This document shows, one piece after another, positions 21,944 to 31,524 of a stretch of DNA of 64,000 nt. Numbering within the stretch: the stretch's first letter is position 1; every line of letters begins with the position of its first letter. This DNA comes from Balneolaceae bacterium (lineage in GTDB: Bacteria; Bacteroidota; Rhodothermia; Balneolales; Balneolaceae). The position numbers and the translations under genes are program-made. Location: the NCBI GenBank assembly GCA_965247355.1, contig OZ252011.1:3113397-3177396 (forward strand), in the 5' to 3' direction. The notes below the pieces were generated by a model, which was not told where the DNA came from, made no database searches, and worked only from the letters and a program-made list of their open reading frames with translations.

Positions 21944-22360
21944 ATGGCACGCGATTTCAGACGAGGCGATAAACGACTTACTCCCCTTTCGCTGTTTTCA
22001 CAGTCGTCATTGACGGACATTGTGCTTTTGTTACTGATTTTCTTTCTGCTTACCTCTTCCTTTGTCACCAATTTCGGTATTAAGGTGAACATCCCCCGTG
22101 CAGAAAGCGGAGCGGTTCAGGAAAATCAATACATCTCGGTTGCCATTACAAAAGACGGGCAGTTTTATGTAGAAGGAGATTTGACCGCAACAGGATCTTT
22201 AGCGGGTGCTATCCGCGATGCAAAAAATAATAAACCGGAAGGCACAATCGTATTAAGAGCAGATAAAGATGCCACGGTAGATGATGCCGTTCGGGTACTT
22301 AACATTGGGAAGGCATTAAACCTTAAACTAGTAATGGCCACGGAACAAGGCTCACTGTAA
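21944..22360 (+). CDS. exbD: ExbD/TolR biopolymer transport protein
   Basis: 138 aa with an N-terminal anchor containing LTDIVLLLLIFFLLTS, followed by a periplasmic domain (IVLRADKDATVDDAVRVLNIGKAL). Confidence 0.85.
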   Translation: MARDFRRGDKRLTPLSLFSQSSLTDIVLLLLIFFLLTSSFVTNFGIKVNIPRAESGAVQENQYISVAITKDGQFYVEGDLTATGSLAGAIRDAKNNKPEGTIVLRADKDATVDDAVRVLNIGKALNLKLVMATEQGSL

Positions 22361-22361
22361 T

Positions 22362-23177
22362 ATGAAACCTCAATTCACTAAAGATGATCAACGGGCGCTG
22401 GGAACTACCATTGGGGTAGCTGTGCTGCTTCTTGCATTTTCACTTTGGTACACCATAGATATGGGGCGCAATCTCCGTCCATCTTTTATTGAGGTTGAAT
22501 TTGGGGAATTTCAAACAGGACGATTATCTCAGTTTTCTGAAGTACAAAATGAGCAGGTTGCTACTCGCCAGAATCCTTCTGAAACAGAAACGGAAGAGCC
22601 AGTAGAAGAAGCTCCGGAACCGGAAGAAACACCTGAAACCCCGGCCGAAGAAAACATAAAACCTGTTGACTTACCCGATCAGGTGGAAGAAGTAGTTGAA
22701 GAGGTGGTTCAAACACCTGAGACAGAAGTCATTGATCCTACCCAAACTTCCGAGGAAACAGAAGAACAGGTCGAAGTACCTCCTCAGGCTCAGGAAGAGG
22801 AAGAACAAAATGAAGGAGCCGATGAAAGTGGTGATCCGGACGGCGCTATTGGCGATGTAAACTCTGATCAGGGAATTGGAACTGACGATGAAAAAAGCTC
22901 TCCATATGAATTGCAATGGGAAGGTGATATTGAGCGGGCGCCTATGGTTCAGCCGTTACCGAGCAATAACGCGAATACAGAAGCAGTAATAACTGTTCGT
23001 TTTGAAGTTCGCCCGAATGGAACAGTAGGTCGGATTATACCACTCAGAAAAATGAATCCCGAGCTTGAAACTGAGGTTATGAGTACGCTGCGTACATGGC
23101 GCTTTTCCCGTCTCCCAAGCGGTGTTCCCCAGCAAGCACAATGGGGTACCATTACCTTTCGCTTTGTGTTTGACTGA
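22362..23177 (+). CDS. TonB/TolA-like energy-transducer protein (TM anchor, acidic linker, TonB-C-like domain)
   Basis: 271 aa. The TM helix is LGTTIGVAVLLLAFSLWYTI. An E/P/T-rich linker follows. The C-terminus is AVITVRFEVRPNGTVGRIIPLRK...EVMSTLRTWRFSRLP...GTITFRFVF. It starts 1 nt after exbD. Confidence 0.7.
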   Translation: MKPQFTKDDQRALGTTIGVAVLLLAFSLWYTIDMGRNLRPSFIEVEFGEFQTGRLSQFSEVQNEQVATRQNPSETETEEPVEEAPEPEETPETPAEENIKPVDLPDQVEEVVEEVVQTPETEVIDPTQTSEETEEQVEVPPQAQEEEEQNEGADESGDPDGAIGDVNSDQGIGTDDEKSSPYELQWEGDIERAPMVQPLPSNNANTEAVITVRFEVRPNGTVGRIIPLRKMNPELETEVMSTLRTWRFSRLPSGVPQQAQWGTITFRFVFD

Positions 23178-23268
23178 TTATCCTCCTCACAAAATTTTTC
23201 TCCACCCTTCCCTTTGATTAGTTACATTTAGTGAATAATAAGCTGAAAAACTAACTAACAAGGATTTT

Positions 23269-26200
23269 ATGAAGCGACTGATCATCGGATGCTTAGCACT
23301 ATTCATAAGCATTTCATTTTCGGAAATTACCACAGCACAGATTTTTGGACATGGTGCGGAAACTCAAAACCCAACGTATACTAATCAGGGTTTTAAAGAT
23401 TTGAAATTCAGGAATATTGGTCCATTCAGAGGAGGAAGATCGGTAGCGGTAGCCGGGCACGATGATCAGCCTTATACCTTCTATACTGGATTTACAGGTG
23501 GTGGAGTATATAAGACTACTGACGGTGGAAATTCATGGGTTAACATTAGTGATGGCTTTTTTAAAACGGGTTCGGTGGGTGCGATAGATGTTGCTGATTC
23601 TGACCCGAATGTGATTTATACAGGAATGGGGGAAACTGACATCCGGGGAAATATGAGTGCCGGAGATGGAATGTATAGATCCACGGATGCAGGGAAAACC
23701 TGGACTTATCTTGGACTAGGGGAAAGCCAGTTTATCGGAGATATCGAAATTCATCCCGAAAATCCGGATGTGGTTTGGGTTGCTGCAATGGGTCAAATTT
23801 TCGGTGAAGAAGGAAATGAAGAACGAGGGGTGTTTAAAACCACAGACGGTGGTAAAACATGGAATAAAGTACTATTCAGAAATAATAAAACCGGAGCGGT
23901 AGATATCGCTGTGGATCCAAATAACTCCAGAATTCTGTTTGCAGCATTATGGGAAGCCTACCGGAATCCATGGGAAATGAGTAGTGGTGGTGAAGGCAGT
24001 GGTTTATTTAAAAGCACTGATGGAGGTGAGACCTGGAAAGAAATTACACAAAGTCCGGGGCTGCCTAAAGGGTTGGTTGGGAAAATTGGAGTGTCAGTTT
24101 CCCCTGTAAATTCGAACCGAGTATTCGCTATTGCTGAGAATGCGAAAGGCGGTGGACTTTTTCGATCAGAAGACGGTGGTGATACTTGGCAAAGGGTAAG
24201 TGCAGACCGTAATCTTCGTCAAAGAGCGTGGTATTATTCTAAAGTTATTGCTGATCCGGGAAATGAAGATGTAGTATATGTTCTGAATGTAGGATTTTGG
24301 AAATCAACCGATGGCGGTAAAACATTCAGCAGAATTCGGACTCCACACGGTGATCACCACGACCTTTGGATTGCGTCAGATAATCCACAGCGAATGATTA
24401 TTGGTGATGATGGAGGCGGACAGGTTACCTATAACGGAGGGCAGGGTTGGTCCAGTTATTACACGTCTGCTACAGCGCAGATTTATCAGGTGACGACTGA
24501 CAATCAGTTTCCATACATGATTTATGGCGCACAGCAGGATAACAGTACTTTTGCTATTAAAAACAGAACCAGTGGTAGTGGAATTGATGAAAGCGACTGG
24601 TGGCCGGTGGCTGGTGGCGAAAGTGGATATATTGCTCCCGATCCGGATAATCCAAATGTAACCTACGGCGGAAGTTATGGTGGCTACCTTAACAAGTACG
24701 ATAAAGAACTTGGACTAAGTGATCGTATTGATGTATGGCCGGATAACCCAATGGGAGCCGGAGCTAAAGACCTGAAATATCGGTTCCAGTGGACGTTTCC
24801 GATTATCATCTCTCCTCATAATTCAGATGTGTTGTACACAACATCGCAACATGTTCACCGATCCACTAATGAAGGCATGAGCTGGGAGGAAATAAGTCCG
24901 GATTTAACCCGAAATGATAGTACGAAGCAGGATGAATCCGGCGGACCTATTACCAAAGATGATACTTCGGTTGAATACTATAACACCATTTTCACCTTTG
25001 CAGAATCCCCGATTGAACCGGGATTACTATGGGCAGGATCGGATGATGGGTTGATTCATATAAGCCGTAATAATGGAGAAAGCTGGGAGAATGTAACACC
25101 ACGAGGATTACCTGAAACGATGATCAGTATCCTCGACGCTTCTCATCACGATCCCGGTACTGCTTATTTTGCAGCGACCCGATACAAGTTCAACGACTAC
25201 CAGCCGATGATCTATAAAACCACCAATTACGGACGTAGCTGGACAAAAATAACGAATGGAATTCCTGCTATGGATTTCACCCGCACTGTTCGTGAGGACC
25301 CGAATAAAGCAGGCTTATTATATGCAGGAACTGAAACCGGACTTTACATTTCATTTGATGCAGGTGAAAACTGGCAAAGTTTCCAGCTTAATCTACCGGC
25401 AGTTCCTATAACTGATCTAGCCGTTCATAAGCGAGATAAAGATTTGATCGTAGCAACTCAGGGGCGATCGTTTTGGGTATTTGATGATCTTCCAGTACTC
25501 CATCAAATAAGTGAAGAAATTACTGAATCGGAGCACCATCTTTTTGATCCGGAGGATACTTATTTGTTCGGAAGAGGTGGAAACTTTAATCCTTCGGGAA
25601 CTACCGGCCAAAATCCTACTCCCGGTGCTGTAGTATATTATATGCTTGGACGCGATGTAAGCGAAGAAATTAAGCTTGAGTTTCTGGATATGAGAGATAA
25701 TGTAATTAAAACATACTCCAGTAAGAAAGATGACCGTGATCGACCGGTGAAGGAATCTCCATTATTTTATGAGGAAGAAGATCAGCGAAGACCTTCCGTT
25801 GTTTCAGATAAGGCAGGGCTTAATAAGTTTGCCTGGGACCTGGAATATCCCGGAGTAACCAATCTGGATGGTCGCCAAATCTTATGGGCAGGCAATACTT
25901 CAGGTCCGGATGCAGTGCCAGGAACCTATAAAGTTCGCATGTACATTGGCGAAGACATGGTGGGCGAACAGGATTTTGAAGTGATGAAAGACCCTCGTTT
26001 AACCGATGTATCTCAGGAGGATTTGATAGCTCAGTTTGAACTCGTTCAGACTATTAACGCTAAGCTCGATACTACGCACAAAGCGATTAACAGAATAAAA
26101 AAGGTGCGGGATGAGATTAACGAGCTGATGAGTGAAACGCAGAGCAACGAAGAGCTTCAGGAAAAAGCTAAAGCCATGATTGCAGCAATCACAGCTATTG

Positions 26201-26460
26201 AAGAAGAGCTGTATCAAACCAAAGCAGAAGCCACCCAGGATGTATTAAACTTCCCAATTAAGCTAAATAACAAACTCGCGGCATTAAAAGGAACGGTTGC
26301 TACCGGATTTGGCCGGCCAACGGATCAGCAGTATGCGGTTTTCGAAGAGCTGGGAGCTAAAGTAGATGTTCAGCTGGAAAAGTTGCAGGCGATCTGGAAT
26401 GGGGAATATGAAAATGTACTTCAGGAGCTCGAAAACCCCAGTGTGCCTATTGAAAATTAA
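23269..26460 (+). CDS. Secreted BNR/Asp-box repeat, sortilin (VPS10)-like beta-propeller protein
   Basis: 1063 aa with a signal peptide. It has many Asp-box repeats (TTDGGNSW, STDAGKTW, TTDGGKTW, STDGGETW, SEDGGDTW, STDGGKTF, SRNNGESW, TTNYGRSW). Confidence 0.8.
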   Translation: MKRLIIGCLALFISISFSEITTAQIFGHGAETQNPTYTNQGFKDLKFRNIGPFRGGRSVAVAGHDDQPYTFYTGFTGGGVYKTTDGGNSWVNISDGFFKTGSVGAIDVADSDPNVIYTGMGETDIRGNMSAGDGMYRSTDAGKTWTYLGLGESQFIGDIEIHPENPDVVWVAAMGQIFGEEGNEERGVFKTTDGGKTWNKVLFRNNKTGAVDIAVDPNNSRILFAALWEAYRNPWEMSSGGEGSGLFKSTDGGETWKEITQSPGLPKGLVGKIGVSVSPVNSNRVFAIAENAKGGGLFRSEDGGDTWQRVSADRNLRQRAWYYSKVIADPGNEDVVYVLNVGFWKSTDGGKTFSRIRTPHGDHHDLWIASDNPQRMIIGDDGGGQVTYNGGQGWSSYYTSATAQIYQVTTDNQFPYMIYGAQQDNSTFAIKNRTSGSGIDESDWWPVAGGESGYIAPDPDNPNVTYGGSYGGYLNKYDKELGLSDRIDVWPDNPMGAGAKDLKYRFQWTFPIIISPHNSDVLYTTSQHVHRSTNEGMSWEEISPDLTRNDSTKQDESGGPITKDDTSVEYYNTIFTFAESPIEPGLLWAGSDDGLIHISRNNGESWENVTPRGLPETMISILDASHHDPGTAYFAATRYKFNDYQPMIYKTTNYGRSWTKITNGIPAMDFTRTVREDPNKAGLLYAGTETGLYISFDAGENWQSFQLNLPAVPITDLAVHKRDKDLIVATQGRSFWVFDDLPVLHQISEEITESEHHLFDPEDTYLFGRGGNFNPSGTTGQNPTPGAVVYYMLGRDVSEEIKLEFLDMRDNVIKTYSSKKDDRDRPVKESPLFYEEEDQRRPSVVSDKAGLNKFAWDLEYPGVTNLDGRQILWAGNTSGPDAVPGTYKVRMYIGEDMVGEQDFEVMKDPRLTDVSQEDLIAQFELVQTINAKLDTTHKAINRIKKVRDEINELMSETQSNEELQEKAKAMIAAITAIEEELYQTKAEATQDVLNFPIKLNNKLAALKGTVATGFGRPTDQQYAVFEELGAKVDVQLEKLQAIWNGEYENVLQELENPSVPIEN

Positions 26461-26735: not shown

Positions 26736-27974
26736 TCAAAACAGGACACTAAGCTGGATGGTGATTACATCATCGTCCAGGTCAGGTCCATCATCTTTTG
26801 AAAGCAGGTAAGAAGCTTTCAATAACACATTTCGCCGAAGCTTATATCCGGCAGCAAACTCCATGCGCTGCCTATCAAATGTCCAGGGCGTAGTCGTCTC
26901 ATCTACTTTATCATTATTAATATCCCTTCTGTAGATTTCAATTTCTCCTTCAAACATCTGTTCATAACGAACGGCAAGATATCCACCGACTAAAAGAGGT
27001 AAATCATAAATAAACTCACCTGAAAAATGATCCGTAGTTGCTTTTCCTGTTCTTCTGGCATCAGAAGTTGAAGTTTCAGGATCATAGAAAGGAGCTTTGA
27101 AAAAAGCTTGATTCCATTCAACATTCAAGGTGTAATAACGATAATTAAGGGTTAAGTCTGCACCCATCAGTGATTGAGGATACCCTGAAAGATCATACAC
27201 CAATAAAGAATCATTCGCTTCATCATCCATAATAAACGACCCTTTGCTGTAAGAAGCTCCAAGTTGCGCCCAAATAGCTGGCCTGAATACTACCCTTCCC
27301 ACCCATGCAGGACTATCAAATTCACCAAAATCGAAATGTGATGAACTTGGAGCCAGTGTAGCGGCGATGTCAAAACTGAGCCACCTTGACTCTCCAAAAG
27401 CATGAGAGATTTTAATTCCCTGTGAATACATTCGTGGGTAAATCATACTTAATCCGTGCTCCTCATCACCGTACAAGTCCTGAATCGCTGAAGGATCGCT
27501 AATTCCATCCTGAAGATGGCCAAATCTATTACTTACAGGCAAACCTGCAGAGTGAGACATTGGTAAATGAACGAATGGATTTTCACTGGAAAGAAATTTG
27601 GTTGAGTAGCCCCCATAAGGAGTAACAAATCGCCCGGCCGTAGCTATAAAGTCGGAATCGAAATCGGGAGACCAGTTGATATTCATCACTGAGAAAAAGG
27701 GGGAACTCAACTTTTTTCCTTCATAGTGATCAGCCTGTAGCACGCTATTTATAAACCATTGTTCAGAGATATTCGCAGAAAGAAAAAGCCGGATATTAGG
27801 TGTATATAATGAAAGACCCTCTGCAGGGGTTTGATTTACATACGGCGAAGAATCATCACCGCTAATTCTGATCTCAAAATCTGTAAGACCGGAAATATTG
27901 ATTTGTGCGTTCGCGGGTTTAATAACCATGAGACTGATTAAAAGTATACACAATGAAAAGAGTCGCATTTTCAT
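26736..27974 (-). CDS. Outer-membrane beta-barrel protein (porin-like), third gene of the cupredoxin-cyclase operon
   Basis: 412 aa with signal peptide MKMRLFSLCILLISLMVIKPANAQ, alternating-hydrophobic strands and the terminal ...ITIQLSVLF. The start is 1 nt downstream of the cyclase stop. Confidence 0.6.
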   Translation of the reverse strand: MKMRLFSLCILLISLMVIKPANAQINISGLTDFEIRISGDDSSPYVNQTPAEGLSLYTPNIRLFLSANISEQWFINSVLQADHYEGKKLSSPFFSVMNINWSPDFDSDFIATAGRFVTPYGGYSTKFLSSENPFVHLPMSHSAGLPVSNRFGHLQDGISDPSAIQDLYGDEEHGLSMIYPRMYSQGIKISHAFGESRWLSFDIAATLAPSSSHFDFGEFDSPAWVGRVVFRPAIWAQLGASYSKGSFIMDDEANDSLLVYDLSGYPQSLMGADLTLNYRYYTLNVEWNQAFFKAPFYDPETSTSDARRTGKATTDHFSGEFIYDLPLLVGGYLAVRYEQMFEGEIEIYRRDINNDKVDETTTPWTFDRQRMEFAAGYKLRRNVLLKASYLLSKDDGPDLDDDVITIQLSVLF

Positions 27975-27975
27975 A

Positions 27976-29766
27976 TCAATTGTCCTCCAAATGTGGAACG
28001 GTTTCTAACTCATTTTGCCAATCGATCTCATAAATTTGAACAAGGTTTTGAATTCCTTTTACCTGAATTTGTTCAAGTTCTTTAGTGGGGATTTTTCTTT
28101 CAAGATTTAGAAATACTGGCTTAGATATTAAAATCTGATGTTTTCCTGCTGCAGAACACAATCGGGCGCCAAGATTTACTGTATTTCCAAGCACGGTATA
28201 ATCCATTCTGTTTTCACTTCCCATTGCTCCCATAACAGCTTCACCACTATTTATTCCAATGCCCACAGCCAGCTCAGATTGTTCCTGGTTCAGCATAGAT
28301 GGGAGTTGTTGCTGAATTCGTATAGCTGTTCGTACAGCTTTTTGATCTTTATCAGGTCCCTGAAATACGGCGACAAGTTCATCCCCAACAAACTTATCTA
28401 CATCACCACCATACTCCTGAACGAGTTCAGCCTGAAAACTCAGAAGGTTGTTTAACATATCGATGACTTCTTCAGGAGTATGTTTCTCGCTCCAGGCAGT
28501 AAAGCCACGAATATCAGAAAAGAACACAGTAATATCCCTCCGTTCGCCCCCAGGTTCAATTCGGCTTAGATCTTTTTGAATGGCGTCAAGTGTGGCTTCA
28601 GAAACAAACTTGAGCATTAATAATCGTTCACGAAGCCCTTCAATCAGGTGATTGAATGCCGAGGTTAAGGTTCCAATTTCATCTTTGGTTGTAATTGGGA
28701 CTTCTTCACTAAAATCTTCCTTCTCAACCCGGAGGACCCCTTGGACGAGTAAATCAATAGGTCGCGTAATGCGTTTTGTGAGAAGGATACTTATAAAAAC
28801 AGAAGCTAGAATTGCCAATAGTCCGATCCCAAAAATTACTAATTGTAGGTTTTGTAATGGGATTAATGCCCGGCTCAAAGATTTTGCTACTGCGTAATAT
28901 CCTTTTATTCCGGTGACTTCATCGTCTAATTGAAACATGGGTGCCAGATAAACCAACCATGTTTCTCCGTTTATTGATATTTCTGAAGTTTGAGCACTCT
29001 TACTTTTAAGAACTTCATAGGTATCCTCATGCACTCTTTTGTTTAACAGATTTTCATCCTGCTCCATAAGGTTTTTAAGTGAAGTAGCAATAAGACGGTC
29101 ATCTACATAAAAAATCACTTCCATCCCGATATCTCTGGAAAGTTGCTCTGTTTCAATCTGGCGAATTGGGAGCCCATACGAAAGTGTTCCAACAAGATTA
29201 TAACCTGCCCAAATCGGAATGGTAATCACATTAAAATAACGATCATTCTCTTTCCAGATGTAAGTTTGATCGGGCATATATCCATTTAAGGCCTCAGTTA
29301 CTCCTTCCCGGTCGGCGATAGAAAATTGTGGTAGCTTGTAGGTTGAAAGCTGTCCTAAGGGCTTGCCTTGATTATCAGAAACCAACAAAAGACCAGAAGA
29401 ATCAGGATTGGTAAAAAAGCTTTCAGGAATTAATGAGTCGGGAATAATGGGGTCAAAGTCGAGCAGGTACCGAAGCTCATCGCGAATTTTTTGTGTCACA
29501 GTTACTGTATCGCCAGTAGAAATAGCTGCTTTTAGGCTTGGAATATCAGCTAATAAAATAGCAGTTTGACGAAGCTGACGGAATCGAATATCCTGAATAC
29601 GCTCAAATATCCGACCGGCTTCCTGAAAATTTGTATCAATATCATCCCGGATACGGTTTTCTACTAACTGTCCCACACCAATCAGGAGGGATAGTACCGT
29701 AATAAGTACCAAACCAACAAAGCCGGAAAGAAGCTTCCATCGTAAACTGAAAAAGGATGACTTCAT
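27976..29766 (-). CDS. Membrane sensor adenylate cyclase (TM, periplasmic sensor, TM, HAMP, class III cyclase domain)
   Basis: 596 aa with two TM helices flanking a domain of about 290 aa. HAMP is RPIDLLVQGVLRVEKEDFSEEVPITTKDEIGTLTSAFNHLIEGL. The cyclase motifs are ITVFFSDIRGFT, DKFVGDELVAVF, GIGINSGEAVMGAMG and YTVLGNTVNLGARL. Confidence 0.88.
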   Translation of the reverse strand: MKSSFFSLRWKLLSGFVGLVLITVLSLLIGVGQLVENRIRDDIDTNFQEAGRIFERIQDIRFRQLRQTAILLADIPSLKAAISTGDTVTVTQKIRDELRYLLDFDPIIPDSLIPESFFTNPDSSGLLLVSDNQGKPLGQLSTYKLPQFSIADREGVTEALNGYMPDQTYIWKENDRYFNVITIPIWAGYNLVGTLSYGLPIRQIETEQLSRDIGMEVIFYVDDRLIATSLKNLMEQDENLLNKRVHEDTYEVLKSKSAQTSEISINGETWLVYLAPMFQLDDEVTGIKGYYAVAKSLSRALIPLQNLQLVIFGIGLLAILASVFISILLTKRITRPIDLLVQGVLRVEKEDFSEEVPITTKDEIGTLTSAFNHLIEGLRERLLMLKFVSEATLDAIQKDLSRIEPGGERRDITVFFSDIRGFTAWSEKHTPEEVIDMLNNLLSFQAELVQEYGGDVDKFVGDELVAVFQGPDKDQKAVRTAIRIQQQLPSMLNQEQSELAVGIGINSGEAVMGAMGSENRMDYTVLGNTVNLGARLCSAAGKHQILISKPVFLNLERKIPTKELEQIQVKGIQNLVQIYEIDWQNELETVPHLEDN

Positions 29767-29768
29767 AG

Positions 29769-30467
29769 CTAAGGGTTAAGAGTTATAGTGCCGATCTGAG
29801 ATGTTTGTCCGCTTTGTACGTTAACCTGAGTACTAGATTCTTGGTAGCCAAGTGCATACAATGTAAGTTCATAAGAACCGTCCCCGATACCTGAAAAAGA
29901 AAAAGGATCACCACTTTTTACTTTTGTCCAGGCAATGGCATTTTGCGGAAGCACATAAATGATGGCATGCATGTTGGAATGGATATCACAGAATACGTCT
30001 ACCACTCCCGGTTTTTCAAAAGTTACATCAAAATGTTCGCCTTTAGGGCGTCGACCCACATCAAATTTATGAGGGCTCGTTAAGCTGAATACATTATGAT
30101 ACACAGGATCTGAATTTTGAATTCTTACCCTTCCACCAAGCTCGACGGGTAATATGGAAGGCACAAATTTCTGATCCTTCTGATTCAAAAACTGGAATGC
30201 TTGTGGCAAGGAGTTATTAGCACCAACACCTTTTAGAACAACAAGAATAGAGTCTGTGGAGGCTTGGCTAGCTCCTGAAGGAGACGGGCGACCGTAAAGA
30301 CCACCGCCGAAACGTCCCGGGCGGTTTTTTGGAGTTAGAACCGCGGTTCCTTCTACAGAGCCATTAAAAACAGTAACCTCCTGTTTAGATTGAGAAGGCG
30401 ATGATACTCCAAAAAAGCTTAATATTAAGCCGATTAACAAAGAGTATAGAGCGGTGTGTAAGTTCAT
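29769..30467 (-). CDS. Secreted cupredoxin (type-1 copper-like) protein with a C-terminal CarboxypepD_reg-like beta-sandwich
   Basis: 232 aa with a signal peptide. Candidate copper ligands are H124 (DPVYHNVF) and C160-x2-H163-x2-M166 (VFCDIHSNMH), the same Cys-His-Met spacing as amicyanin. The C-terminal segment is SYELTLYALGYQESSTQVNVQSGQTSQIGTITL. Confidence 0.65.
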   Translation of the reverse strand: MNLHTALYSLLIGLILSFFGVSSPSQSKQEVTVFNGSVEGTAVLTPKNRPGRFGGGLYGRPSPSGASQASTDSILVVLKGVGANNSLPQAFQFLNQKDQKFVPSILPVELGGRVRIQNSDPVYHNVFSLTSPHKFDVGRRPKGEHFDVTFEKPGVVDVFCDIHSNMHAIIYVLPQNAIAWTKVKSGDPFSFSGIGDGSYELTLYALGYQESSTQVNVQSGQTSQIGTITLNP

Positions 30468-30499
30468 TGATCCCGATTTAAGTCGGAATTAACTTATAA

Positions 30500-30549
30500 A
30501 TGCATAAAACAGCAAGAAATCAGGATTCAGATTCCGACCCTGAATCCTG
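30500..30549 (-). terminator. Probable intrinsic terminator overlapping the mscS-family stop codon
   Basis: There is a perfect 10-bp inverted repeat, caggattcag (30521-30530) / ctgaatcctg (30540-30549), with a 9-nt loop. On the minus-strand RNA it is followed by AUUUCUUGCUGUUUUAUG. Confidence 0.55.
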
Positions 30550-31524
30550 GCGCTCTTCCTCATTCTCAGGAATTGCATTCCTGAAATTGATATCTCGTTG
30601 TGGGAAAGGAATTTCTATTTCCATTTCTCTGAATTTCCTGACAATTGCCTGATTCAATTCATTCAGGACATTATACTTTTTCTTAACATCAGGAATCCAA
30701 ACCAATAACTTCATATCCCAGGCTGAATCTCCAAAATTACGGAGATGCACATCATGAGCGGGATTTTTGAGGACATTTTCACTTTCTTCAGCAACCTCAT
30801 TCAATGCTTTTAGCACATCCTCCAGATTAGAACCATATGCTACTCCAACATTCACTTGAAGGCGATAGGTTGGATCTCCATGCGAATAGTTTATTACATC
30901 CTGAGAAACAAACTGTGAGTTCGGAACAATGATAGAAATATTATCGAGCGTCTTAACTTTTGTTGAGCGAATATTGATTTCCTGAACATCCCCTTCAATA
31001 TTACTAACCTCAACACGATCACCCACACTAATAGGACGTTCGAAAAGGACAATTAAACCTGAGATAAAGTTAGAAGTAACATTCTGAAGACCAAAACCAA
31101 TACCGACAGAGAGAAACCCAAAGATTACGGCTAGCCCGGTAAGATTAATTCCTAAGAATTGAAAAGAGACGAATATCCCAATGATCACAATTACATACTG
31201 AGACATTCTTGCAAGCGTATATCTCAGGCCGCTGTCATGTATAAACCGGGGGAGAACTTTTTTGTTTAGAAGTCTTTTAACAAAAGAGGCCAGATACGAA
31301 AACCCAATTATAAAGAGAATGAATACGATAATGGACATAAATGTGACCGGGGTGTCCTGTATCTCAAAGAGGGTCACATTTAAAAAATCACGAACATATG
31401 TGAAAATCTCAGTTATGGAATAGTCGGTCGGGTCCGGGATAACAAAAGTTGAGTCTGTTTCGATGATTGAAGAATCCGGATTAACCGAACTGGTATCTAT
31501 TTGCTGATTAAAGAGTTGATTCAT
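30520..31524 (-). CDS. Mechanosensitive ion channel (MscS family)
   Basis: 334 aa with three TM helices, then the MscS beta-domain (VGDRVEVSNIEGDVQEINIRSTKVKTLDNISIIVPNSQF). Confidence 0.85.
   Translation of the reverse strand: MNQLFNQQIDTSSVNPDSSIIETDSTFVIPDPTDYSITEIFTYVRDFLNVTLFEIQDTPVTFMSIIVFILFIIGFSYLASFVKRLLNKKVLPRFIHDSGLRYTLARMSQYVIVIIGIFVSFQFLGINLTGLAVIFGFLSVGIGFGLQNVTSNFISGLIVLFERPISVGDRVEVSNIEGDVQEINIRSTKVKTLDNISIIVPNSQFVSQDVINYSHGDPTYRLQVNVGVAYGSNLEDVLKALNEVAEESENVLKNPAHDVHLRNFGDSAWDMKLLVWIPDVKKKYNVLNELNQAIVRKFREMEIEIPFPQRDINFRNAIPENEEERQDSGSESES

Follow-up and report, generated by a model that had tools for sequence, protein, structure and literature searches.

A three-gene locus of an uncultured Balneolaceae bacterium, encoding a predicted exported cupredoxin (g1), a predicted inner-membrane sensor adenylate cyclase (g2), and a modeled porin-like barrel (g3), recurs across phyla with swapped output and probably represents an uncharacterized envelope sensing module. 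The new point is that g1 follows the dCache_3-HAMP input of g2 rather than its cyclase. The first-pass annotation of the window (the whole 64,000-nt stretch of DNA analyzed) had proposed the three genes as one signaling module, and their co-localization extends well beyond this genome: a search seeded with g1 yielded 59 loci, of which 52 have g1, the sensor gene, and g3 side by side and 2 more are interrupted by contig ends; all 14 metagenomic loci retrieved with the sensor domain have the three genes side by side as well. The trio is also adjacent around five sampled members of the g1 family, i.e., two from the homologue search (P0127 and P0151) and three representatives of a 50%-identity library (P0268, P0324, and P0350). 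In Balneolales, g1 and g3 lead to the dCache_3-HAMP input and the input leads back to them; starting from g1, this association reaches across phyla regardless of the output domain. Since g1, g2, and g3 each have homologues at E < 1e-100, a chance pattern is ruled out for the three-gene observation. The adjacent sensor is missing beside some g1-family genes, namely, one on Sinorhizobium meliloti pSymA, which adjoins SCO and Sox genes, and those at loci L054 to L058; the family is thus not exclusively a signaling accessory. Our literature search found no paper describing this trio.

The output attached to this constant input varies among lineages. It is a cyclase in 38 loci, and this cAMP-output version occurs in a clade centered on Balneolaceae and Gracilimonas plus a few metagenome-assembled genomes labeled Chitinophagales, Saprospiraceae, or Bacteroidetes. 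A HisKA_2 plus HATPase kinase takes its place in Fodinibius and Aliifodinibius, and a HisKA plus HATPase kinase in Cytophagia and KSB1, where a sigma-54 response regulator is encoded nearby and the gene order is g1-g3-g2. In Comamonas and Novosphingobium, a domain search confirmed a GGDEF-EAL output, and the Burkholderia counterpart is an EAL-domain protein by annotation. Retention of g1 with the dCache_3-HAMP input while the outputs change strengthens the idea of a cupredoxin as sensor partner.

The three genes lie on the minus strand at 30467..29769 (g1), 29766..27976 (g2), and 27974..26736 (g3), exactly as first annotated. The intergenic gaps of 2 and 1 nt were likewise borne out, with the g1/g2 junction reading TAG-CT-ATG (spacer at 29767..29768) and the g2/g3 junction TGA-T-ATG (spacer at 27975..27975). 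Spacing between g1 and g2 is at most 4 nt in 41 of 46 related loci. A terminator-like hairpin on the minus strand (30521..30549), at the end of an upstream MscS-family gene and followed by a 52-nt intergenic region (30468-30519), likely marks the 5′ boundary of the three-gene unit; this feature is a pattern match only, and overall counts in the promoter and terminator scans showed no excess over shuffled controls. The MscS gene lies upstream of the trio in the closest relatives only.

The product of g1 (232 amino acids; 29769..30467) combines a putative type-1 copper domain with a small β-sandwich. Its single hydrophobic segment (residues 3 to 24) is N-terminal and constitutes a predicted export signal (residues ∼1 to 24; 30396..30467), in agreement with the proposed secretion. 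No lipobox Cys was found, C160 being the sole Cys of the protein, and the segment may remain as an uncleaved anchor. The cupredoxin domain (residues ∼73 to 173; 29949..30251) is delimited by the strands of an AlphaFold2 model (pLDDT 81.5). Foldseek matched this model to the C-terminal cupredoxin of NirK (6hbe; E 4.8e-6), to amicyanin (1id2; E 8.8e-6, TM score of 0.68 on the target), and to pseudoazurin and plastocyanin. With phmmer, g1 hit plastocyanin 1bxu (E 0.0025) and aligned to the same NirK domain, which likewise carries C-x2-H-x2-M; the putative copper ligands line up in both alignments. The two Pfam matches, Cupredoxin_1 and Copper-bind, fall under their gathering scores (17.5 versus 27; 16.1 versus 21.2), and it is therefore the fold model and the conserved ligands that underpin the cupredoxin call. 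Codon inspection placed the four putative copper ligands (29970..30098) where they had been assigned: H124 (30096-30098) in NSDPVYHNVFS, and C160 (29988-29990), H163 (29979-29981), and M166 (29970-29972) in VFCDIHSNMHA. All four are invariant across the complete homologues aligned, down to 21% identity (alignments A1, 25 sequences; A3, 13; and A5, 8, including Proteobacteria at 21 to 24% identity); the sole exception, in alignment A2, is the truncated remnant L056. The suspected CarboxypepD_reg-like sandwich (residues ∼177 to 230; 29778..29939), of the CarboxypepD_reg/fn3_3/PEGA-like type, is supported by a Pfam match to fn3_3 that clears the threshold (E 1.2e-6) and by a sub-threshold one to CarboxypepD_reg (E 4.4e-5) and is modeled as five strands with pLDDT above 90. 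The 159 homologues of g1 derive chiefly from Balneolaceae and Gracilimonas.

Resemblance to amicyanin extends to the His followed by Cys-x2-His-x2-Met spacing noted at first pass and to a His-Asn pair, with N-x-[DE]-x3-H-N-V in g1 recalling amicyanin NREAMPHNV. Amicyanin, pseudoazurin, and plastocyanin share the cupredoxin fold of g1; unlike them, g1 has an additional sandwich at its C terminus and an invariant Tyr within a Gly-rich linker, is sub-threshold in Pfam, and has sensor genes as neighbors in place of genes for dehydrogenases or reductases. PGAP names the family "methylamine utilization protein" in Proteobacteria, a name for which every gene context examined lacked support. According to annotation and alignment, these proteobacterial genes are true g1 homologues that retain all four ligands; the gene next to them again specifies a dCache_3-HAMP input, and an outer-membrane-barrel-like protein is encoded too. 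The proteobacterial version differs in its c-di-GMP turnover output, in the added gene for an exported truncated hemoglobin that adjoins the cupredoxin gene, and in its barrel, a DUF3034 protein for which hhalign detected no homology to g3 (probability of 0.2). These pairs with dCache_3-HAMP-GGDEF-EAL proteins are known from annotation; we found no study of them in the literature.

The 596-residue g2 protein (27976..29766) is predicted to be a membrane sensor cyclase that makes cAMP from ATP. The order of transmembrane segment, periplasmic domain, transmembrane segment, HAMP, and cyclase stood up to reanalysis, whereas the length of the periplasmic domain, previously put at about 290 residues, was corrected to ∼262 on the basis of hydropathy and Pfam (residues ∼38 to 299; 28870..29655). 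Hydrophobic segments at residues ∼10 to 37 and 300 to 334 correspond to TM1 (29656-29739) and TM2 (28786-28869), which flank this domain. Judged from sequence, the domain is a double-Cache domain of the dCache_3 family: in isolation it scored 27.8 bits against a threshold of 25.7, and 11 of 14 orthologous periplasmic domains matched the same model (best E 8.3e-16). It has no Cys, and the alignment revealed no invariant His or Met; hence, no intrinsic metal or redox site is apparent in it. HAMP follows at residues 328 to 380 (28627..28785; E 7.1e-13), and the class III, IIIb-type catalytic domain at residues 410 to 574 (28045..28539; Guanylate_cyc E 4.7e-27). All six catalytic residues are present, i.e., the metal-binding D418 and D462, the substrate-specifying K458 and T524, recognized earlier in DKFVGDE and YTVLGNTVN, and N531 and R535. 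They align with Pseudomonas aeruginosa CyaB (3r5g; E 5.5e-32), the nearest solved relative, through FFSDIRGFT, DKFVGD, and MDYT..G..VNL..RL. The metal, Lys/Thr, Asn, and Arg motifs of the two catalytic domains are identical, whereas the CyaB input is a MASE2 membrane domain and that of g2 is periplasmic dCache_3 plus HAMP.

The g3 protein (412 amino acids; 26736..27974) has the predicted signal peptide (residues 1 to 23, ending ANA/Q; 27906-27974) and the QLSVLF C terminus described at first pass. It matched no Pfam or NCBIfam family, and its 72 homologues are annotated as hypothetical throughout. Its all-β AlphaFold2 model (pLDDT 84.7) folds as a porin-like barrel, nearest OprP and OmpF, which supports the suggestion of one component per envelope layer. 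OprP 2o4v was the best Foldseek match (E 3.2e-13), followed by OmpT, OmpF, and a chitoporin; the matches to OprP/OprO, OmpF, and OmpT span E values of 3e-13 to 1e-11, with TM scores of 0.5 to 0.66. OprP and g3 are similar in length, and strand 5 of g3 is followed by a long loop. Sequence identity to OprP/OprO and general porins is ∼10 to 13%, and g3 lies outside the porin families of Pfam and NCBIfam.

YfiBNR (TpbB) of P. aeruginosa is also a three-gene, envelope-spanning system (Malone et al. 2010); it has a small regulator in the periplasm, one protein in the outer membrane, and an inner-membrane transducer with a PAS/Cache-like periplasmic domain, HAMP, and a nucleotide-cyclase-type output. 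None of its parts has a homologue in the trio, and the likeness is in logic only: YfiR belongs to DUF4154 and g1 to the cupredoxins, YfiB is an OmpA/Pal-like lipoprotein versus the porin-like g3, and the output is GGDEF versus a class III adenylate cyclase. Residues 208 to 381 of g2 gave a weak NCBIfam match to DgcN/YfiN (E 1.6e-5), far under the cutoff. In LuxP-LuxQ and TorT-TorS, a periplasmic protein, the true ligand receptor, docks on a double PAS/Cache-type transducer domain encoded by an adjacent gene; these pairs differ in that the partner is a small-molecule periplasmic binding protein instead of a metalloprotein, in the absence of an outer-membrane component, and in having kinase outputs only. 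The earlier comparison with FecR/CHASE2-type triads holds as an analogy only, since the trio contains no such domain.

On balance, we favor the view that the trio is one transcription unit encoding a tripartite envelope sensor with a cupredoxin co-sensor, probably with a redox read-out. The porin-like channel g3 would admit the stimulus to the periplasm or tether the complex, and g1, an exported amicyanin-like type-1 copper domain joined to a small β-sandwich, would dock on the Cache domain of g2 as an accessory co-sensor. By reading the state of the g1 copper center, dCache_3 would act through HAMP on a homodimeric class IIIb adenylate cyclase producing cAMP from ATP. The favored variable is the Cu(II)/Cu(I) oxidation state, i.e., periplasmic redox or electron-acceptor status, because the g1 site retains every element of the electron-transfer signature (a His-Asn pair plus a short C-x2-H-x2-M loop) and because the proteobacterial operon adds an exported truncated hemoglobin. 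The geometry of type-1 copper sites is almost the same in both redox states, and such a read-out would thus need a subtle switch, for which a His-flip, as in reduced amicyanin, or altered charge is a candidate. The main alternative, which we regard as unlikely, retains the architecture and has g2 read copper loading (apo versus holo g1), g3 being the copper route through the outer membrane. The invariant ligand set would suit copper sensing, as would the SCO copper chaperone gene beside one g1-family member and the accepted role of porins in copper entry (PMC7558416). Against it, Met- or His-rich motifs, typical of periplasmic copper-trafficking proteins, are absent from g1, whose mature form has one Met and one Cys in total; homologues from outside Balneolales do not retain H136 and H141, the two His residues of the long g3 loop; no copper-homeostasis genes lie beside the module within the window; and the proteobacterial partner is a hemoglobin, not a copper-handling protein.

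By analogy with the structural genes adjoining two-component regulators in cinA-cinRS and the cop and cus operons, g1 and g3 might instead be cargo, i.e., an electron carrier and a porin of a redox or uptake pathway co-expressed with or regulated by g2. Classical cupredoxins do act as electron shuttles, some g1 homologues occur without a sensor in respiratory or sulfur-oxidation contexts, and the sigma-54 regulator of the histidine-kinase versions could control the operon. We nonetheless judge this arrangement decidedly unlikely, as no donor or acceptor redox enzyme is conserved beside the trio in Balneolales and the same slot is filled by cyclases and GGDEF-EAL enzymes, neither of which are local transcription regulators. 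Moreover, linkage tracks the periplasmic input domain whichever of the four outputs is attached and in both gene orders, a pattern that, together with the conserved g1-to-g2 spacing, is typical of the subunits of one machine. A point against the favored co-sensor model is that direct binding of small molecules is the usual mode of dCache domains, and g2 might accordingly have a ligand of its own, with g3 as its specific channel and g1 only oxidizing, reducing, or presenting it. The substrate specificity of OprP, the nearest fold match of g3, would fit such direct sensing, which we consider very improbable: a type-1 copper protein offers no catalytic site at which a substrate could bind, and no ligand-binding motif could be assigned in the Cache domain, whose sole sequence match in the PDB is the WalK sensor domain (E 0.024). 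Outside the Balneolaceae/Gracilimonas-centered clade, the dCache_3-HAMP input module acts on histidine kinases or c-di-GMP enzymes in place of the adenylate cyclase.

The three minus-strand genes encode a 232-aa exported protein (g1; 30467..29769), a 596-aa sensor adenylate cyclase (g2; 29766..27976), and a 412-aa outer-membrane barrel protein (g3; 27974..26736), with open reading frames exactly as first noted. The junction sequences, TAG-CT-ATG between g1 and g2 and TGA-T-ATG between g2 and g3, agree with the 2-nt and 1-nt gaps read in the first-pass annotation, and the trio forms an operon-like unit with one component per envelope layer. None of the three genes has a paralogue within the window. 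Promoter and terminator scans yielded counts no higher than those of shuffled controls, and an Rfam scan of the region detected no RNA family at E <= 0.1. The end of a same-strand MscS-family channel gene (30520-31524) lies 52 nt upstream of the trio, and its stop codon is overlapped by an 11-bp terminator-like hairpin (30521-30549). This channel was discarded as a fourth member of the module because it occupies the upstream position only in the closest relatives and because the terminator-like hairpin separates it from g1. Downstream of g3, a convergent plus-strand gene ends at 26460. Reading of the translations alone suggested an ExbD-like gene, a TonB-like protein with an acidic Glu/Pro-rich linker, and a 1063-aa BNR/sortilin-like repeat protein, the gene of which is convergent with g3, as the downstream neighbours (21944-26460); none of them is kept beside the trio in other genomes. 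The nearest relatives are Balneolaceae metagenome-assembled genomes (MAGs), and the nearest genome locus (L020) shares 80%, 93%, and 85% identity in g1, g2, and g3, respectively; this assigns the window to an uncultured member of the Balneolaceae.

To assess conservation, we defined the module as a g1 homologue adjoining, on the same strand, a dCache_3-HAMP transducer and a barrel of ~390-410 aa without a Pfam family. A genome scan with the g1 alignment, using one genome per species, retrieved 58 loci, and a contig look-up added one more. The module was found in the window and in 52 of these 59 loci, as well as in all 14 loci of a sensor-seeded scan and in five sampled family members, which bears out the co-localization on which the first-pass annotation had staked its proposal. 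The g1-seeded loci comprised 38 with the order g1-g2-g3 and a cyclase output, 9 with the same input and another output (either contiguous or truncated by the end of the contig), 5 with the order g1-g3-g2' (g2' being a g2-type sensor), 2 in which the contig ended after g1-g3, and 5 with no neighbouring sensor detectable by g2 similarity. The last group consists of one locus each from Acidobacteria (with g1 downstream of a histidine kinase gene and that of a sigma-54 regulator) and Polyangium, two weak matches in Wallbacteria, and a truncated remnant in Fodinibius halophilus. Spacing between g1 and g2 did not exceed 4 nt in 41 of 46 loci. When metagenomes were scanned with the sensor domain only, g1 was immediately upstream and g3 downstream in every one of the 14 loci; this search used a close alignment (A8), so reciprocity is shown for the Balneolales-like range only. 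For five other g1-family members, of which two came from the homologue search and three represent 50%-identity clusters, the contigs all showed the same neighbours. Association of g1 and g3 with the dCache_3-HAMP input is thus conserved, and it is reciprocal within the Balneolales range.

The g1 family comprises thousands of sequences and, with E <= 1e-30, 250 clusters at 50% identity. Searching a library of 1.84 billion proteins with the g1 profile returned 15,645 matches, a figure that is not a family size because it is inflated by giant CarboxypepD_reg-repeat proteins. These proteins, of 2,000-6,000 aa and with 15-58 CarboxypepD_reg-like repeats, dominate the raw matches. Some library proteins (P0244, P0249, P0258, P0290, and P0339) carry 2 to 7 g1-profile repeats, and in several cases their best-matching stretch falls in the cupredoxin region. 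In F. halophilus, the remnant (L056:7854-8303) is cut off just past the HNVF motif and has no adjoining g2 or g3, with a PAS-rich HisKA_2 kinase nearby on the other strand; it is a decayed copy of the module. A Balneolales MAG (L035:6940-7479) has a second cyclase-domain gene immediately upstream of g1, the product of which is 37% identical to g2 residues 376-542.

A lone hydrophobic stretch (residues 3-24) marks the N terminus of g1, which lacks a lipobox and has C160 as its sole Cys. Curated cupredoxin profiles all scored below threshold on it: Pfam Cupredoxin_1 (PF13473; 17.5 bits versus 27), Pfam Copper-bind (PF00127; 16.1 versus 21.2), and the NCBIfam pseudoazurin model (13.1 versus 109.85). 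NCBIfam has no model for g1 or for its proteobacterial homologues. The cupredoxin assignment nonetheless holds on the joint evidence of pairwise alignment, predicted fold, and ligand invariance. With phmmer, residues 100-166 aligned with plastocyanin 1bxu (E 0.0025), and g1 also aligned with the additional cupredoxin at the C terminus of Thermus NirK (6hbe), where the loop CSIHPYM shares the C-x2-H-x2-M spacing of CDIHSNM in g1. In the AF2 model (pLDDT 81.5), residues 73-173 form an all-beta core with the Greek-key beta-sandwich fold of cupredoxins, and Foldseek matched this core with probability 1.00 to the NirK 6hbe C-terminal cupredoxin, amicyanin 1id2, pseudoazurins, and plastocyanins, at TM scores on the target of about 0.55-0.74. 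The putative ligands H124 (followed by N125), C160, H163, and M166, originally picked out by eye, align with the ligand positions of plastocyanin and the NirK cupredoxin. No substitution at these positions occurs in 25 Balneolales sequences with identities as low as 36% (alignment A1), in a cross-phylum set (A3), or in proteobacterial homologues at only 21-24% identity (A5); in a set of 12 sequences (A2), the sole exception is the truncated F. halophilus remnant, which is without the C-terminal three ligands. The likeness of the Cys-His-Met spacing to that of amicyanin, also pointed out at first reading, fits the amicyanin ligand loop, which we take to be C92-x2-H95-x2-M98, and amicyanin is among the top structural matches. 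Judged from its sequence, g1 is a divergent cupredoxin branch lying outside curated sequence families and carries an intact putative type-1 copper ligand set. Type-1 copper proteins hold one copper and have a Cys-to-Cu charge-transfer band at ~600 nm and a small EPR A-parallel.

Outside the cupredoxin core, the C-terminal 50 residues of g1 exceeded the Pfam threshold for fn3_3 but not those for CarboxypepD_reg and PEGA, which also matched. The C-terminal CarboxypepD_reg match (29778-29939) spans profile positions 40-81 only, and residues 36-44 (30340-30362) form a strand, GSVEGTAVL, that resembles the usual first strand of CarboxypepD_reg, which raises the possibility that the cupredoxin sits as an insertion within the beta-sandwich. 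The protein also has a Gly-rich linker (FGGGLYGRP) of low AF2 confidence. Its Tyr, Y58 (30294-30296, within 30270-30335), is invariant in the 25 Balneolales sequences and at least 90% conserved in the cross-phylum set, and it may be a docking motif.

In g2, two hydrophobic segments (~10-37 and 300-334, the second extending into the start of HAMP) enclose a periplasmic domain followed by HAMP (residues 328-380; 49.1 bits in Pfam). The first-pass annotation had rightly placed a sensor between two transmembrane segments; it had put the domain at about 290 aa, whereas it spans ~262 residues and is here identified as dCache_3. This double-Cache family scored 27.8 bits on the isolated domain, versus a threshold of 25.7, and 24.4, just below threshold, on full-length g2. 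Among orthologous sensor domains, 11 of 14 matched (best E 8.3e-16); membership is thus borderline for this g2 sequence and clear for the orthologue set. The periplasmic domain contains no Cys, and no His or Met is invariant among orthologues, so that it shows no apparent metal or redox site of its own. Its profile had a sole, weak match among PDB sequences (WalK, E 0.024), from which no ligand can be inferred.

The catalytic domain of g2 matched Guanylate_cyc (PF00211) at residues 410-574 with E 4.7e-27 and 95.2 bits, versus a threshold of 21.9. Its best solved relative is CyaB of Pseudomonas aeruginosa (3r5g; E 5.5e-32), with which the motifs FFSDIRGFT, DKFVGD, and MDYT..G..VNL..RL match column by column. 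This alignment locates the full class IIIb set: the metal-binding Asp residues D418 and D462, the substrate-specifying K458 and T524, the transition-state Asn N531, and the Arg R535. Both metal ligands, on which the earlier cyclase assignment depended, are therefore in place, as is the Lys/Thr pair that it had read. By this residue set, the cyclase appears intact. A Lys/Thr pair in class III cyclases predicts ATP, which is accordingly the predicted substrate of g2.

No curated family covers g3. Pfam gave no matches at E <= 1, NCBIfam has no g3 model and gave a sole match to the LbtU porin model (E 0.032; 13.7 bits versus 90), and the 72 homologues are all labelled 'hypothetical'. The protein has a signal peptide ending ANA/Q, no lipobox, and a C-terminal Phe, with terminal F or Y in 12 of 12 aligned relatives. 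Its AF2 model (pLDDT 84.7) is all-beta and forms a large antiparallel barrel of about 16-18 strands, with a long, partly helical loop following the fifth strand. The best Foldseek matches were OprP 2o4v (E 3.2e-13), Vibrio cholerae OmpT, OmpF, and chitoporin, at TM 0.5-0.66 and 9-14% identity. As modelled, g3 is a porin-like barrel of an unnamed family, in line with the secreted barrel ending in Phe described at first reading. Two His residues in the long loop, H136 and H141, were considered as metal-binding candidates and dismissed, as they are not conserved in a distant branch.

The output domain attached to this input varies between lineages. In Fodinibius and Aliifodinibius, similarity to g2 ends at residue 382, the end of HAMP, and is followed by HisKA_2 with HATPase. 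Cytophagia, KSB1, and unclassified MAGs have the order g1-g3-sensor; the output there combines HisKA and HATPase, with a gene for a sigma-54 response regulator close by. In Comamonas and Novosphingobium, the Pfam architecture of the sensor is TM-dCache_3-HAMP-GGDEF-EAL. Since g1 tracks the input across these outputs, it is linked to the periplasmic input domain and not to cAMP synthesis, and the form with a cyclase represents one clade's version of a far wider module. Of the copper/redox-to-cAMP module proposed in the first-pass annotation, the trio itself, the nature of the signal aside, is real and conserved, but cAMP is one of four outputs. At four loci (L047, L053, L059, and L071), two small opposite-strand genes lie between the sensor kinase and the sigma-54 regulator, one of them with a PIN domain in L059, which suggests a toxin-antitoxin-like pair. 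The sigma-54 protein is probably the response regulator of the kinase, and the two small genes are found again in several distant forms of the module.

On proteobacterial plasmids, homologues of g1 carry the annotation 'methylamine utilization protein' or 'carboxypeptidase regulatory-like', and a gene for an 'EAL domain-containing protein' follows 4-6 nt after them. In Burkholderia, Caballeronia, and Novosphingobium, the operon has two extra genes, encoding a DUF3034 protein and a group 1 truncated haemoglobin, and thus four in all: DUF3034, truncated haemoglobin, cupredoxin, and dCache_3-HAMP sensor (L064:3583-7796, L061:4390-8887, and L062:4509-6901). The sensor gene encodes GGDEF-EAL according to Pfam in the Novosphingobium locus (L061), is annotated 'EAL domain-containing protein' in L064, and has decayed to a 138-aa 'cache domain' fragment in L062. 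With its signal peptide and C-terminal ...LQLAY, the DUF3034 protein is probably an outer-membrane barrel; homology between it and g3 was not detected (hhalign probability 0.2). The truncated haemoglobin has a clear Sec signal peptide in the Burkholderia and Caballeronia loci (L064 and L062) and a possible one in Novosphingobium. Exported truncated haemoglobins are unusual. The pairing of an exported haem protein with a cupredoxin that is itself exported hints at electrons or a gas (O2/NO) as the input, on circumstantial grounds and from distant relatives. The Sinorhizobium meliloti pSymA locus (L063, 5100-5480) has a g1-family gene, annotated in two pieces in this strain, without an adjoining sensor, in surroundings that include an SCO copper chaperone, a metallophosphoesterase, and SoxYZ/cytochrome genes. 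Some g1-family members may be plain electron carriers.

We consider it probable that g1 acts as a cupredoxin co-sensor of the g2 sensor system. In such an arrangement, g1 would dock on the Cache domain of g2, the state of its copper centre would bias HAMP and hence the activity of the cyclase dimer, and g3 would let the stimulus in or anchor the complex. Type-1 copper sites are structurally rigid between redox states, so the read-out would depend on charge or on the His-flip that reduced amicyanin-type loops are known to undergo. Alternatively, g2 could read the copper occupancy of g1 instead of its redox state; we rank this below redox sensing, mainly because of the exported haem protein next to the cupredoxin in the proteobacterial operons.

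Two further explanations are less likely. In one, g1 and g3 would be co-expressed cargo and not input; the constancy of g1 alongside the sensor domain through changes of output is the pattern expected for an input-side partner. In the other, g2 would bind a small molecule directly and g1 would only process it; no ligand-binding motif could be assigned to the sensor domain. Building on the co-sensor reading, a broader proposal can be advanced, although only tentatively: a blue-copper co-receptor, its oxidation state or occupancy read directly by the double-Cache domain, would define a widespread and unrecognized class of periplasmic redox/copper sensors. Its input would feed cAMP, c-di-GMP, and two-component outputs across five or more phyla, and its proteobacterial version, wired to an exported truncated haemoglobin, would form an extracytoplasmic O2/NO-to-second-messenger chain.

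All domains of the module fall within established folds or families: cupredoxin (assigned from its fold and ligands, not by HMM threshold), dCache_3, HAMP, class IIIb cyclase, and porin-like barrel. In its logic, the module resembles YfiBNR, which also combines an outer-membrane protein, a periplasmic regulator, and a HAMP transducer, and LuxPQ and TorTS, in which a periplasmic protein is the true receptor of a double PAS/Cache sensor. No part of these systems is homologous to those of the module, so the relation is one of analogy and not of membership. YfiBNR-type membership was rejected on the parts themselves: YfiR is a DUF4154 periplasmic repressor and YfiB an OmpA/Pal-like lipoprotein, whereas in g1 a cupredoxin is joined to a beta-sandwich, and g3 is a porin-like barrel that lacks a lipobox. 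Dependence of a transmembrane sensor on a periplasmic accessory protein has precedents, but to our knowledge none of them involves a cupredoxin; the novelty would lie in a cupredoxin as the accessory of such an envelope sensor. In the full-text literature covered, mostly that outside subscription journals, no paper linked a cupredoxin or a 'methylamine utilization protein' with a cyclase, a HAMP domain, a sensor kinase, a Cache domain, or a c-di-GMP enzyme, and none dealt with DUF3034, truncated haemoglobin/GGDEF/EAL, or dCache_3 in this context.

The swapping of outputs is of practical use, as it leaves a choice of read-out for one and the same input: cAMP in a cya mutant of E. coli, c-di-GMP by reporters in Burkholderia, or phosphorylation of the kinase. 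If g1 is the input, the module would constitute a new bacterial route linking second messengers to the redox or copper status of the periplasm, and it would provide a function for the large orphan g1 family, currently mislabelled 'methylamine utilization protein' in Proteobacteria, and for two unnamed families of outer-membrane barrels.
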